From the IMG/VR virus record IMGVR_UViG_2617270992_000014: DNA of 41,104 nucleotides; one strand, written 5' to 3'. Positions within the stretch are counted from its first letter, which is position 1; each line of letters opens with the position of its first letter. Under the pieces are notes generated by a model. It saw nothing but the letters and a program-made list of their open reading frames with translations. It had not been told where the DNA came from and made no database searches. Of the stretch, positions 5,945 to 12,609 are shown in pieces. The translations under genes and the position numbers were made by a program. This DNA comes from a virus. Taxonomy: Duplodnaviria; Heunggongvirae; Uroviricota; Caudoviricetes.

Positions 5945-6619
5945 TCAGTCTAAGTATTGATGTATTTGTGAAACTTTACCTTTAATGGTGTAACCACCAT
6001 TCAGTTCGATGGGTTTGTAAAGCGGATTCAGTGACAACAGATAGATGTTTGGTCCGTCAATCGCAACTTTTTTTAGTGTTACGTTTGGCGTTCCTTCCAA
6101 TTGGATTAAGATTATTTTTCCCACCAGTTCTCTAATGTTACTTGAGCATGGTGTGATCAGCACGGTAGATCCGTCGGGGATGGTTGGGAGGCCGTTAGAG
6201 TTTGTCATCGCATCTCCCTCAACATGCAATAAAAAAGAGTTTTCAGCGGTTTTTGTCATGACATCAACCCAATTCTTAATACCAGGAATCTCGGTTACTG
6301 GACAACTCATATCCCAATAACCAGCCTGTTCCCACGTTAAAACGGGCAACCGGGCGATGTTGTCACTAATGTAAGGGTACTGATTCAGACGCAGATCATC
6401 GGTTTTATCGTGACAGTCCTTTCCATAAAGAATCCATTCAGGAGATTTGGAAAGCAATTTTGACAGTAGATGCAAATTCTCACCGTCAGGTTTTGAAGAG
6501 CCATTTTCCCATTTTGTTACGGATACACGAGATATGCCGATTGCTTTCGCAACCTGCTGTTGGGTTAATCCAACGTCTTTTCGACGATTCCGAATACGTT
6601 CGCTGATAGTGTTTTTCAT
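5945..6619 (-). CDS. CI-like prophage repressor (N-terminal HTH plus C-terminal LexA/S24-type autopeptidase domain); longer alternative starts at 6661 and 6718
   Basis: HTH segment LTQQQVAKAIGISRVSVTKWENG; C-terminal domain resembles the S24 peptidase fold. The start at 6619 places both operator palindromes in the intergenic region and implies a leaderless transcript as in lambda cI; the longest ORF would overlap cro. Confidence 0.8.
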   Translation of the reverse strand: MKNTISERIRNRRKDVGLTQQQVAKAIGISRVSVTKWENGSSKPDGENLHLLSKLLSKSPEWILYGKDCHDKTDDLRLNQYPYISDNIARLPVLTWEQAGYWDMSCPVTEIPGIKNWVDVMTKTAENSFLLHVEGDAMTNSNGLPTIPDGSTVLITPCSSNIRELVGKIILIQLEGTPNVTLKKVAIDGPNIYLLSLNPLYKPIELNGGYTIKGKVSQIHQYLD

Positions 6620-6633
6620 GTAACCAATGTTAC
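6620..6633. promoter_or_regulatory. Candidate right operator palindrome GTAACCAATGTTAC
   Basis: 14-bp GTAAC-N4-GTTAC inverted repeat abutting the proposed repressor start codon. Confidence 0.55.
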
Positions 6634-6667
6634 TACCAAGTGATGTTGCTATGGTTGACATTTCTAT

Positions 6668-6681
6668 GTAACTATTGTTAC
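6668..6681. promoter_or_regulatory. Candidate right operator palindrome GTAACTATTGTTAC
   Basis: Second GTAAC-N4-GTTAC palindrome 48 bp from the first; TTGACA hexamer at 6655-6660 between them; lies about 30 bp upstream of the cro start. Confidence 0.55.
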
Positions 6682-6710
6682 CCTCCCGCTCGAAATAACA
6701 GGAGAGTTTT

Positions 6711-6923
6711 ATGTTCAAAGATGATGTTCTGCGCTATTTCAAAAAAAAGCGACTAGTAGCTGAGGCTCTTGGAATTTCACATGTGGCTGTTGTGCGGTGG
6801 AAAGCAGTTATTCCCAAACTTCGCGCAATGGAACTGGATGAAATTACTAACGGTGAATTGAAATACAACCCAGAACTTTACAAGAAGCAGGATAGCACCT
6901 CGAACGAAGGAAAGAATGATTAA
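6711..6923 (+). CDS. cro: Cro-like small HTH regulator (YdaS-like)
   Basis: 70-aa ORF divergent from the repressor, AGGAG 7 nt upstream; HTH segment RLVAEALGISHVAVVRW. Confidence 0.75.
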   Translation: MFKDDVLRYFKKKRLVAEALGISHVAVVRWKAVIPKLRAMELDEITNGELKYNPELYKKQDSTSNEGKND

Positions 6924-7348
6924 TGAAAATCAAGCATGAACACATCCGCATGGCGATGAATGTCTGGGCGCATCCGGACGGTGAAAAAGTTCCGGCAGCT
7001 GAAATAACCCGGGCTTATTTTGAGCTTGGTATGACGTTCCCGGAGCTATATGACGACAGCCATCCGGAAGCCCTGGCTCGCAATACTCAGAAAATATTCC
7101 GCTGGGTGGAGAAAGACACCCCTGATGCGGTTAAAAAAATTCAGGCGTTGTTACCAGCGATCGAAAAAGCAATGCCACCTCTGCTGGTGGCCCGAATGCG
7201 CAGCCACAGTTCAGCCTATTTTCGGGAGCTGGTGGAGACGCGGGAACGACTGGTGAGAGACGCTGATGATTTTGTCGCAGTGGCGATCGCTGGTTTCAAC
7301 CAGATGAATCGTGGTGGCCCGGCGGGAAATATTGTGGTTGTGCATTGA
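6923..7348 (+). CDS. YdaT-like protein in the CII position (regulator of unknown mechanism)
   Basis: 141-aa ORF directly after cro (ATGA-type junction); size and position match the ydaS-ydaT pair of Rac-type prophages as recalled. Confidence 0.55.
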   Translation: MKIKHEHIRMAMNVWAHPDGEKVPAAEITRAYFELGMTFPELYDDSHPEALARNTQKIFRWVEKDTPDAVKKIQALLPAIEKAMPPLLVARMRSHSSAYFRELVETRERLVRDADDFVAVAIAGFNQMNRGGPAGNIVVVH

Positions 7349-7413
7349 CTGACAATATTCATACCGGATCACTTCCGGCAATTTGTGAGTAAAAAGATTC
7401 GGTATCAAAAGAG

Positions 7414-8460
7414 GTGAGTATGGCTAACGCCTGGCTCAGATTATGGCATGACATGCCAAATGACCCTAAGTGGCGAACAATTGCCAGGGTGTCAGGGCAG
7501 CCAATCGCAACAGTGATGGCTGTGTATATCCACCTTCTGGTGAGCGCGTCACGAAATGTCACGACATGTCACGGCGTGTCACTACGTGGTCACATTGATG
7601 TCACGACGGAAGATTTAGCAAGTGCGCTTGATGTGACGGAAGAAGTAATTGATTCAATTTTACAGGCAATGCAGGGGCGGGTACTTGATGGAGATTTGAT
7701 CAGTGGATGGGAAAAACGCCAGGTACTGAAAGAGGACAATGGCAACGTTTCACAAACCGCGAAATCCCCGGCAGAGCGCAAGAGAGCGCAGCGCGAGAGG
7801 GAAAAATTACGAAAACAGAATGAGGGGGCGCGCGACGAGTCACGCATATGTCACGACATGTCACGACGAGTCACGACAGATAAAGATACAGATAAAGAAT
7901 TAAACCCCACACATAACGCGCGCGTGCGCGAGAGTGCTCCGGTCAGTGAGGCAAATGGCGTGCCGTTGCAAACATCGGAACCTGATTACCTGGAAGGCCT
8001 GAGCGAACCCATCGGGAAATTTCCGATGACCGATGGCTGGCATCCGTCGCCGGATTTTCGACGACGGGCGGCTCTGTGGGGAGTGGCTCTGCCGGAGCCG
8101 GAATTTACACCAGCTGAACTTGCCGCCTTCCGGGACTACTGGGCAGCGGAGGGTAAAGTTTTCACGCAGGTTCAGTGGGAGCAGAAATTCGCCCGTCACG
8201 TAAATCACGTCAGGGCGCAGGCTAAACCAGTCAGCAAGGGGGTAAACCATGCAGCAGCACCAGGTGGCACCGCATCACGGGCAGTTCAGGAAATTCGGGC
8301 AGCACGTGAGCAGTGGGAACGTGAAAACGGATTTATCAGCGACGGAAACGGCCTGGAAGCTGTGGGAACTCATGGGGGAGGTTTATTCGAACCGCTGGAC
8401 CCAGAAGAACGGGGCCGCACCTTCGAAGCTCTGGATTGCACAGATTGGCGCGATGACTGA
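7414..8460 (+). CDS. Replication initiator (O-like) with DnaT-like C-terminal domain; contains the replication origin iterons
   Basis: 348-aa ORF; C-terminal segment [33 protein letters not shown] resembles DnaT-like primosomal domains; two clusters of direct GTCAC(G) repeats inside the coding sequence. Confidence 0.7.
7548..7609 (+). repeat. Iteron cluster 1 (six GTCAC repeats at about 10-11 bp spacing), candidate origin of replication
   Basis: GTCAC at 7548, 7558, 7568, 7578, 7589 and 7600, seen directly in sequence. Confidence 0.7.
7839..7879 (+). repeat. Iteron cluster 2 (four GTCACG repeats at about 10-11 bp spacing) followed by an AT-rich tract
   Basis: GTCAC at 7839, 7850, 7860 and 7870, then GATAAAGATACAGATAAAGAATTAAA; resembles the iterons plus AT-rich layout of ori-lambda. 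Confidence 0.7.
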
Positions 8461-8914
8461 GCAGCAAATCCGGCAGGTCTGCCGCCAGTGCATGGACCGT
8501 TGCAGGGCAGGTGAAACATGGCCTCCGGACCTGGCTGAGTTTGTGGCGCTGATTTCGGAGAGCGGGGCAAATCCATTTGGTCTGACGGTGGATAACGTGA
8601 TGGAGGAGTACCGACGCTGGCGCAACGAGTCCTGGCGATACGACGGAAGCGATAAATACCCGTGGTCTCAGCCTGTGCTGTATCACATTTGTCTCGAGAT
8701 GCGTTCCAAGGGGATTGAGCGCCAGATGACCGAGGGGGAGTTAAAACGGCTTGCAGAACGGCAGCTGACGAAATGGGCAAAGCATGTTGGTAACGGACTG
8801 AGTGTTCCACCCGTCCGTAGGCAACTGGCAGCACCCATACGTCCTGCGGGACCAACGCCAATTGAGTTGCTGAAACAGGAATATGAACGCCGGAAAGCGG
8901 CTGGGTTTGTTTGA
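8249..8914 (+). CDS. Replication protein P-like (helicase-loader homologue); start uncertain (8249 with strong SD, or 8453)
   Basis: Segments [26 protein letters not shown] and [18 protein letters not shown] resemble lambda P as recalled. AAGGGGG sits 6 nt upstream of the ATG at 8249; ATG at 8453 overlaps the O-like stop. Confidence 0.6.
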
Positions 8915-8946
8915 GTTGAGAAGTAATTTTTACCGGGAGGAAATTT

Positions 8947-9717
8947 ATGGAGACTGTTTTTGACGCACTGAAAGCGATGGGAAAAGCCACGTCGGTAGAG
9001 CTGGCTGCGCGACTTGATATCAGTCGTGAAGAAGTACTGAACGAGCTGTGGGAACTGAAAAAGGCTGGCTTCGTTGATAAAAGCGTATACACCTGGCGTG
9101 TGGCTGGTGAAGGTGAATCCGGGGTAGCCGAAGAGCAGCCAGCACAATCTGAAGTACAGGATGTGCTAACCAGGGAGGTCGAACGAAAAGTTACCGCTGA
9201 CATGATGATTGAGTTTATCGGTCAGGAGGGCGCTAAAACGTGTGAGGAACTGGCGGGTAAGTTCGGTGTCAGCACTCGCAAGGTTGCTTCCACGCTGGCG
9301 GTAGTAACCGCAACGGGGCGGCTGGCACGCGTAAACCAGAACGGTAAATTTCGCTACTGCATGCCGGGCGAGAATTTACCAGTAAAGCCGAAAGTCGCAT
9401 CGGTAACGGAGAATGATGGTAAAGCCTTTCCTCAGCCAGCCGGCATTGCGTTACCAGTACAGGAAGCTGCAACACAGGAAGATATTAAAACAGAAACTGT
9501 AGCGGACATTGTGCAGTCGCTGCCATCGTTTACTGCAACGCGAGCTGATGATTTGATTTTGCCATCGCTGCATTTGGCAAACCGCGAACTGCGTCGGGCG
9601 AAAAATCATGTCCAGAAGTGGGAGCGTGTCTGCGCTGCGCTGCGGGAGCTGAACAGGCACCGGGATATTGTCCGACAGATTTTCGATTCCTCCAGTCGTA
9701 TTGTGTCGGAAAAGTGA
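8947..9717 (+). CDS. Hypothetical protein with two winged-helix-like segments
   Basis: 256-aa ORF with GGAGG-type SD; [31 protein letters not shown] and [24 protein letters not shown] resemble wHTH modules; function unknown. Confidence 0.5.
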
Positions 9718-12242: not shown

Positions 12243-12453
12243 AAACGGTTTGCGGGAAAAAGGGAGTTAAGTAAAATTGCTGCGGGTGCTTGAGGCTATC
12301 TGTCTCAGGCATGAACACCAAAAGGCAGATAGAGAAAAGCCCCAGTTAACATTACGCGTCCTGCAAGACGCTTAACATTAATCTGAGGCCCAATCTATGT
12401 CTCACAAATGTAGGTTAGCCTCTTACGCGCCGAAAGGCAAGGAGAAGCAGGCT

Positions 12454-12609
12454 ATGAAGCAGCAAAAGGCGATGTTAATCGTCCTGATCGTCATCTGTTT
12501 AACCGTCATAGCGACGGTACTGGTAACGAGGAAAGACCTCTGCGAGGTACGAATCCGAACCGGCCAGACGGAGGTCGCTGTCTTCACAGCTTACGAACCT
12601 GAGGAGTAA
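12454..12609 (+). CDS. hok: Hok/Gef-family type I toxin (small membrane peptide)
   Basis: MKQQKAMLIVLIVICLTVIATVLVTRKDLCEVRIRTGQTEVAVFTAYEPEE is near-identical in pattern to HokD/RelF-type toxins as recalled; AAGGAG upstream. The track ORF extends upstream to 12397 in the same frame. Confidence 0.8.
   Translation: MKQQKAMLIVLIVICLTVIATVLVTRKDLCEVRIRTGQTEVAVFTAYEPEE

Follow-up and report, generated by a model that had tools for sequence, protein, structure and literature searches.

A putative replication origin with two iteron arrays inside the initiator gene of a lambdoid prophage

Introduction

Where does replication start in a lambdoid prophage whose initiator gene carries, among its own codons, two clusters of the short direct repeat GTCAC(G)? 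This question is raised by IMG/VR record IMGVR_UViG_2617270992_000014, a 41,104-nucleotide (nt) stretch of Caudoviricetes DNA (hereafter, the window, taken at its full length), for which an earlier note, made by reading the letters, had proposed an origin mirroring ori-lambda and embedded in an O-like gene. The comparative analysis reported here indicates that the locus is very probably the replication origin of the prophage and that this origin lies within the coding sequence of the prophage's initiator. As a kind of element, an iteron origin inside an initiator gene is already known from phage lambda; what appears to be new in the present case is: (i) the initiator family; (ii) repeat units of a single helical turn; (iii) a conserved layout of two arrays plus an inverted copy, with one array placed in the codons of the DNA-binding domain; and (iv) the existence of at least four co-varying iteron specificity classes.

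Full-length copies of this initiator are found in 658 of 5,426 complete Escherichia coli genomes, including O157:H7 prophages, and none of the model phages carries it. E. coli O126:H45 MIN10 has a copy with 99.6% identity. Knowledge of such an origin would help to predict which prophages replicate after induction and which of them are incompatible or cross-activate, and it would also locate the recombination joint at which replication specificities are reshuffled. At least four natural iteron specificities, combined with a near-constant winged helix and a second array, would provide a compact system for the study of how initiator-origin specificity evolves; if the locus is only what it seems, the gain is one of routine annotation, i.e., another type of lambdoid origin.

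Results

Two Phased Arrays and an A-Rich Tract in One Gene

The ten GTCAC(G) iterons listed in the earlier note, six plus four, were recovered at identical coordinates: on the + strand, the copies of array 1 start at 7548, 7558, 7568, 7578, 7589, and 7600, and those of array 2 at 7839, 7850, 7860, and 7870 (Table 1). Eight of the ten read GTCACG, the exceptions being 7578 (GTCACT) and 7589 (GTCACA). The phasing at 10–11 base pairs (bp) claimed for them is confirmed by the measured unit-to-unit steps (10, 10, 10, 11, and 11 bp in array 1; 11, 10, and 10 bp in array 2) as well as by Tandem Repeats Finder, which reports a period of 10 and the identical consensus GTCACGACAT for both arrays. The two clusters are separated by 234 bp (about 290 bp from start to start). 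At the GTCAC density observed on the + strand beyond the array region (0.00098 per bp), only 0.32 copies would be expected in 327 bp, and the corresponding Poisson probabilities are 2.4e-12 for at least ten copies in 327 bp, 4e-11 for at least six in 57 bp, and 6e-8 for at least four in 36 bp; elsewhere in the window, any 60-bp stretch has at most two copies per strand. Since the whole-window total of GTCAC is ordinary (83 vs. 74 expected), the signal resides in the clustering and not in the word. One further GTCACG, at 8195, was considered as an iteron and rejected, as it belongs to the C-terminal module and is conserved in C-modules that are joined to unrelated N-domains.

The A+T-rich tract that had been pointed out after the second cluster (GATAAAGATACAGATAAAGAATTAAA) proved to be physically distinctive. 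The 30-mer starting at 7875 has a nearest-neighbor free energy (dG) of -31.2 kcal/mol, which is the lowest stability in the 6700-9000 interval and in the initiator gene, and it ranks among the least stable 0.08% of the whole window. The tract itself (7876-7905) is 77% A+T and 73% purine on the top strand, and an A-rich tract is kept after array 2 in homologues, including five of the six in which iterons could not be detected. A mildly A+T-rich segment that follows array 1 (7641-7670) was rejected as a candidate for a second unwinding element, since homologues from G+C-rich hosts do not share its A+T richness.

Right beside the A-rich tract, a 14-nt alternating purine-pyrimidine run (7917-7930) forms a short hairpin and is possibly Z-DNA-prone; it recalls the palindrome that lies to the right of the A-rich region in lambda. 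The G+C-rich border that contains this run is common to the Rac-SA53 initiator, which has an unrelated N-domain, and PPompW has a shorter version of it.

Table 1. Positions of the iteron arrays, adjoining tracts, and replication genes in the window.
Feature	Position	Strand	Description
Iteron array 1	7548..7609	+	Six direct GTCAC(G) units; codons of the loop at amino acids (aa) 44-63, between helix 3 and the helix-turn-helix
Inverted iteron copy	7631..7639	-	GTCAC on the - strand at 7633-7637 (GTGAC on +), 33 bp past the last unit of array 1
Decayed fifth unit of array 2	7829..7838 (core 7829-7833)	+	CGCGCGACGA here; GTCACGACGA in most close relatives
Iteron array 2	7839..7879	+	Four direct GTCACG units in disordered-linker codons; proposed core origin array
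A+T-rich, purine-skewed tract	7876..7905		ACAGATAAAGATACAGATAAAGAATTAAAC; directly after array 2; proposed DNA unwinding element, also mosaic junction of the N- and C-modules
G+C-rich tract	7908..7934		CACACATAACGCGCGCGTGCGCGAGAG; right border of the A-rich tract; includes the alternating run CGCGCGCGTGCGCG
Replication initiator gene	7420..8460	+	346 aa from ATG 7420; the open reading frame (ORF) opens at GTG 7414
DnaT-like domain codons	8020..8223	+	aa 201-268, Pfam PF17948; proposed single-stranded DNA (ssDNA)-binding and loader-recruiting part
Lambda-P-like helicase loader gene	8372..8914	+	Overlaps the initiator 3' end out of frame; ORF opens at ATG 8249

Selection on the Repeats and Concerted Change of the Iteron Word

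Three sets of relatives were used to establish what keeps the repeats in place: 24 homologues for a codon test, 43 diverse homologues (38 genome loci and five phage loci, from many genera), and 80 close relatives. The period of 10-11 nt puts the GTCAC word in all three frames, where it is read as Val-Thr, Ser-Arg, or Cys/Gly/Arg-His. In the codon test, Val-Thr is written GTC-AC in 81 of 85 cases within the arrays vs. 1 of 21 outside them, and the word is likewise kept in 48 of 51 Ser-Arg and in 52 of 54 x-His cases. In distant homologues, third codon positions within the initial 126 nt of the gene match the window at no more than 31–50%, which means that synonymous sites are otherwise saturated. 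Because the same word is read in three frames and the synonymous choices are fixed, sequence comparison shows that the arrays are kept by selection acting on the DNA rather than on the protein.

Both arrays are present in all 80 close relatives, which answers in the negative a question raised by the earlier note, namely whether the repeats are absent from close homologues. Within this set, array 1 consists of six or four units and array 2 of four, five, six, or nine (five units in 55 sequences and four, as in the window, in 23), the 6+4 arrangement of the window being a minority form and 6+5 a common one. Across relatives the copy number of array 2 ranges from 3 to 9, and such variation among close relatives is typical of iteron arrays. 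In two IMG/VR relatives with 86-87% protein identity (L110 and L111), array 2 has grown to nine and six units, respectively, which shows that units are still being gained and lost in frame-preserving steps.

At larger distances, the N-domain of the initiator has 908 database relatives and occurs across Gamma- and Betaproteobacteria, and the two-array layout recurs in Enterobacterales, Pseudomonas, Aeromonas, Bordetella, Chromobacterium, Acidovorax, and others. In homologues, array 1 keeps its gene position (nt 129-160/181) with four or six copies (GTCAC at gene nt 129, 139, 149, and 160), the inverted copy is conserved at nt 193/214 in most of them (193 for the four-copy spacing just given), and a further three to five copies lie near nt 387-430. 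An unbiased count of 5-mers revealed that the most repeated word of the first zone recurs at least three times in the second zone in 35 of the 43 diverse loci, while in the rest of the gene the same word is found 0–1 times in most loci and up to four times in loci of the CGAAC class. Indeed, the word itself differs between lineages: GTCAC is replaced in both arrays by GTAACG in four loci (L013, L031, L034, and L042), by CGAACGC in five (L038, L040, L041, L045, and L051), and by GCAACG in Ralstonia phage Firinga (38% identity), and the inverted copy switches along, to CGTTAC in L034 (via a synonymous GTG-to-GTT change) and to CGTTGC in Firinga. It is thus shown by these alignments that the two arrays and the inverted copy change their word together and, judging from the distribution described below, that they travel with the N-terminal winged-helix module. 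The concerted change of both arrays lends support to the earlier suggestion of two initiator-binding arrays.

The Initiator Protein

The gene that harbors the arrays encodes a protein that starts with a winged-helix domain (aa 1-100), continues with a basic, disordered linker (aa 101-165), and ends in a DnaT-like domain. The latter is recognized by Pfam PF17948 (66.3 bits vs. a cut-off of 25, E 2e-18), and in a sequence search of PDB the C-domain alone is matched, by DnaT C-terminal domains (E 2.5e-9). The score with the NCBIfam DnaT equivalog model (97.9 bits) is under the cut-off of 201 even though the domain is present, and the protein is therefore classified, by its profile matches, as containing a DnaT-like domain without being DnaT. 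The match to PHROGs families phrog_1408 and phrog_3729, both annotated as "replication initiation protein", and the labels of RefSeq relatives ("DnaT-like ssDNA-binding domain-containing protein" or "phage replisome organizer") are in line with an initiator function. The designation of the gene as O-like, made in the earlier note, does not hold at the level of sequence, since the best BLASTP match to lambda O has an E value of 2.4 and Pfam finds the DnaT domain and no O family; the gene is O-like by function and position only.

For the first 160 residues, the Pfam search returned no family and only noise even at E <= 10, and the PDB sequence search returned no relative of solved structure. An AlphaFold2 model built with 66 homologues predicts a confident N-domain core (predicted local distance difference test, pLDDT, above 90) consisting of three helices, a loop/hairpin (aa 46-62), a helix-turn-helix (63-84), and a beta wing (85-96), with the folded domain ending near aa 100 and the disordered basic linker following. 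In a structure comparison, the best fold match was the DnaD N-terminal domain, a resemblance that is to be taken as tentative. In this model, array 1 occupies the codons of the loop, where the two units in excess of four correspond to a 7-aa insertion and where confidence is low at the insertion site (aa 49-53); the DNA-binding domain is predicted to be permissive at this loop. The codons of the disordered linker, in turn, contain array 2 together with the A-rich tract.

Modular Exchange at the A-Rich Tract

The initiator gene is a mosaic. Up to 7898, the N-half shows about 87% identity to phages vB_EcoS-689R5, Evi, and Tritos, which have different C-halves. From 7878 onward, the C-half shows 91-96% identity to Rac-SA53 ydaU, to PPompW prophages, and to a record of an Actinobacillus phage, all of which have unrelated N-halves (DUF1376; HTH_36) devoid of GTCAC arrays. 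The breakpoints of similarity, at 7878-7898, fall within the A-rich tract. With the joint placed there, the iterons and the winged-helix domain are never separated, which would be expected if this domain is what binds them. The A-rich tract region appears, from these comparisons, to act as a recombination joint that shuffles origin specificity against loader specificity. Since the Rac-SA53 YdaU shares the C-module only, with a DUF1376 N-domain and without GTCAC arrays, data on the Rac origin oriJ were rejected as a guide to the present locus.

Three further observations concern this modularity. The A-rich tract, followed by CCCCACACATA and a GCGCGCG-rich stretch, is common to three unrelated N-domains (7878-7934 in the window, 2500-2560 in L003, and 2500-2540 in L004), namely, the winged-helix family described here, DUF1376 (Rac-SA53), and HTH_36 (PPompW). 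In the Stx2a phage/PPompW_14040 locus (L004, 2380-2520), where the N-domain is HTH_36-like, a different word, ACCCAAA / GACACCCAAA, is repeated immediately ahead of the joint, and these repeats probably represent a further iteron class within this modular system. In Ralstonia phage Firinga (L050, 1195-2739) and Aeromonas phage pAEv1818 (L054, 1429-3101), the same N-domain and two-array origin are accompanied by a gene for a DnaB-type helicase, without a P-like loader; to judge by these neighbors, the origin-binding module is used with both lambda-style and P22-style partners.

Comparison With Known Origins

A side-by-side comparison with phage lambda revealed a close agreement in position and physical character, as well as substantial differences. 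The iterons of lambda occupy 0.39-0.48 of the O gene (nt 349-433 of 900) and array 2 occupies 0.40-0.44 of the initiator gene (nt 420-455 of 1041); the least stable 30-mer of the gene has a dG of -30.3 in lambda vs. -31.2 in the window; and the A-rich tract is 78% A+T and 73% purine on the top strand in lambda vs. 77% and 73% here. In both cases, the array lies at the boundary between an N-terminal, DNA-binding half and a C-terminal, loader-binding half of the protein and is followed by a purine-skewed A+T tract, a P-like loader gene is located downstream, and Cro-like and cII-like genes are located upstream. Array 2 with the A-rich tract is thus shown, as a matter of sequence design, to be built like ori-lambda in both respects. 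The annotated lambda sites, however, are 18-bp dyad-symmetric elements spaced 20-24 bp apart, whereas the units described here span 10-11 bp and have the asymmetric core GTCACG, and lambda has no counterpart of the second array about 290 bp upstream in DNA-binding-domain codons, of the inverted copy, or of the DnaT-like C-domain. The statement that the locus mirrors ori-lambda in the O gene therefore stands with regard to position, melting energy, and purine bias, and fails with regard to the initiator, which lacks O homology, and to the type of unit.

Variation of iteron number between relatives is another common trait, with four iterons in lambda and six in Shiga toxin (Stx) phages (PMC7466680). 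The iterons nearest to the A-rich tract matter most in these phages, and the extra distal ones are weakly bound, yet required (PMC7466680); the decay of the distal fifth unit in array 2 of the window fits this pattern. Short, imprecise direct repeats inside an initiator gene are likewise regarded as the origin in Salmonella phages L and P22 (gene 18); in phage L, where the origin was inferred from sequence, there are six repeats of an 11-bp unit, a period that is also found in the window (PMC8022706). This system differs in its initiator family, in its DnaB-type helicase partner (gene 12, vs. a P-like loader here), and in that a second array is not reported.

An experimentally proven parallel is oriL of SPP1, in which direct repeats and an A+T-rich unwinding element lie inside the gene of the replisome organizer and are bound by its product (PMC6316719). 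The location within the organizer's own gene is common to the present locus, SPP1, and lactococcal phages with the origin in a rep gene. SPP1 likewise has two sets of binding repeats, oriL and oriR, but these are some 13 kb apart (vs. about 290 bp here) and belong to phages of Gram-positive hosts. Its organizer, G38P, is labeled "DnaD-like helicase loader" in the SPP1 record, a label that may parallel the tentative fold match of the N-domain described above. Comparison of the family alignment with G38P by hhalign gave a probability of 0.1%, i.e., no sequence relation, and the sole sequence link to replisome organizers is a weak match to phrog_4880 (E 3.6e-5). The RepA_N initiators of Firmicutes plasmids (pSK41/pTZ2162 type) differ in that the present case is a phage replicon with another C-domain and with two arrays instead of a single central one, and no sequence similarity to these plasmid initiators was found.

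Two arrays of one iteron, a few hundred bp apart and bound by a single initiator, are known from plasmids P1 (incC/incA) and F (incB/incC). The window resembles them in that one iteron makes up two separate arrays: arrays 1 and 2 share one consensus and co-vary in homologues. It differs from them in that P1 and F use 19-bp iterons in arrays flanking the rep gene, whereas here both arrays are inside the initiator gene. The control arrays of P1 and F provide a model for what array 1 might do.

Discussion

Proposed Mechanism and Its Alternatives

Based on these comparisons, replication could be initiated as follows. Winged-helix monomers would bind one unit per helical turn on a single face of the DNA, and an O-some-like nucleoprotein array would form on array 2; negative supercoiling and, probably, transcription from the cro-side promoter would help to melt the adjoining tract; the DnaT-like C-terminal domain would hold the single strand; and the P-like protein from the neighboring gene would bring in the host DnaB. 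Array 1 would be bound by the same initiator and most likely represents an auxiliary array, which may loop to array 2 and thereby stabilize or enhance the initiation complex, or may titrate or handcuff the initiator as a control locus.

Several observations weigh against this interpretation of the locus as an origin. The A-rich tract is short (about 30 bp), and the distance between the arrays varies from 258 to 350 bp in homologues, which argues against a strictly phased loop. A literature search retrieved analogues only (phage L, SPP1, and Stx phages) and no description of an origin of this family, and a search of 72,556 plasmid records returned no small plasmid with this initiator as its sole replicon, the matches being limited to large plasmids, chromosome-sized records, and 51-kb Pseudomonas episomes. 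What limits generality most is that no iterons are detectable in six of the 43 diverse homologues (L035, L039, L043, L044, L046, and L052): the iterons would seem either not to be obligatory for every family member or to be too degenerate to see. Finally, recognition of different words is hard to trace to particular residues, given that the GTCACG, GTAACG, and CGAACGC classes differ hardly at all in their helix-turn-helix and wing.

With respect to the six loci without iterons, L035, L039, and L043 are Entomomonas/Ventosimonas metagenome-assembled genomes, L044 and L046 come from Serratia and Pantoea and have a large insertion after the wing, and L052 is a Microcystis phage. All except L052 keep an AGATAA-type tract, which in L043 is expanded to about 60 bp of (AAGATA)n.

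The near-invariance of the helix-turn-helix and wing leads to the question of where word specificity is encoded. In the family alignment, most of the class-specific residues are encoded by the iterons or belong to the basic tail after the wing, and the codons of array 1 directly precede those of the helix-turn-helix. This raises the idea, which we regard as unlikely, that binding site and reader are written in the same nucleotides: the iteron-encoded peptide would read the variable 5' half of the iteron and the invariant helix the shared ACG. The idea is based on the class-specific residues being largely iteron-encoded while the helix-turn-helix and wing stay near-invariant. If true, a change of the iteron word would alter the specificity segment of the protein at one stroke and would open an inherent path to new origin specificities that are incompatible with one another.

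Of the competing explanations, the one that survives best is less probable than the two-array origin and still deserves real weight. According to it, only array 2 with the A-rich tract constitutes the origin, and array 1 with the inverted copy is regulatory, serving as an autoregulatory roadblock or operator or as a copy-control array of the type of P1 incA and F incC. Such a division of labor is suggested by the fact that only array 2 adjoins the least stable tract, that one array suffices for lambda, that the spacing between the arrays is variable, and that the inverted copy follows array 1, given that inverted half-sites serve autorepression in the iteron plasmids pPS10, F, and R6K. However, copy control would bring no evident benefit to a phage replicon in its lytic phase, the conservation of array 1 is as strict as that of array 2, and the data do not separate an enhancing role from a repressing one.

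It is quite improbable that the arrays bind the initiator module or another phage protein for a purpose other than replication, such as control of transcription of the early right operon or provision of a recombination hot spot for module exchange. The mosaic junction beside array 2 would be in keeping with such a purpose, and winged-helix folds do occur mostly in transcription factors. Nevertheless, the DnaT-like domain, the P-like neighbor, and the PHROG families mark the protein as a replication initiator, the succession of iterons and A-rich tract agrees with ori-lambda in quantitative terms, and the junction falls in the A-rich tract, which is common to unrelated initiators, and not in the iterons. 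Almost no credence can be given to the repeats being a by-product of a peptide motif under protein-level selection or of neutral slippage in tolerant loops: despite the location of both arrays in low-confidence or disordered protein segments and the variable copy number, both versions are ruled out by the codon test, as the period is not a multiple of three, one word encodes three different residue pairs in turn and is conserved where third positions are saturated, with its synonymous positions fixed, and it changes in concert in both arrays.

Gene Neighborhood and Minor Features

The genes around the initiator are those of an early control and replication region. Upstream are a cI-like repressor gene (5945-6718, - strand), a P22-Cro-like gene, and a YdaT/cII-like gene (6923-7348), and the gene product immediately downstream is a helicase loader by its matches to Pfam Phage_lambda_P (E 8.4e-17, 61.9 bits vs. 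a cut-off of 26), to phrog_109 ("P-like helicase loader"), and to lambda P itself (BLASTP, E 8e-7). On account of these Cro-, cII-, and cI-like genes upstream and the P-like loader downstream, the locus represents, in terms of gene content, the replication module in the early right region of a lambdoid prophage. The window was also identified as IMG/VR UViG_2617270973_000009.

The initiator and P-like ORFs overlap out of frame by up to 212 nt (8249-8460), and both are open in all 52 distinct relatives compared. RefSeq relatives of the loader begin at the equivalent of 8453. Within 8372-8457, variable sites fall 2, 3, and 11 times on the first, second, and third codon positions of the P frame, respectively, i.e., the third-position excess is found in the P frame and not in the initiator frame; since the variable sites follow the P frame, ATG 8372 or a codon before it is the probable start of the P-like gene, and the RefSeq start lies further downstream.

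Scans for promoters and terminators within the initiator gene yielded nothing beyond shuffled expectation, and Rfam and tRNA scans gave no match in the origin region. Further downstream, at 12284-12459 (+), Rfam identifies a sok antitoxin RNA (RF01794, 118.8 bits vs. a gathering score of 59), which indicates a putative toxin-antitoxin module of the hok/sok type downstream of the replication genes. On the minus strand just upstream of the initiator gene, a promoter-like site (7355..7328; TTGTCA, 16 nt, AATATT) and a terminator-like hairpin (7191..7174) were noted as consensus matches, the number of which is not above shuffled expectation; such a pair (7355-7165) would give rise to a transcript of about 150 nt, antisense to the 3' end of the cII/YdaT-like gene and positioned like the oop RNA of lambda.

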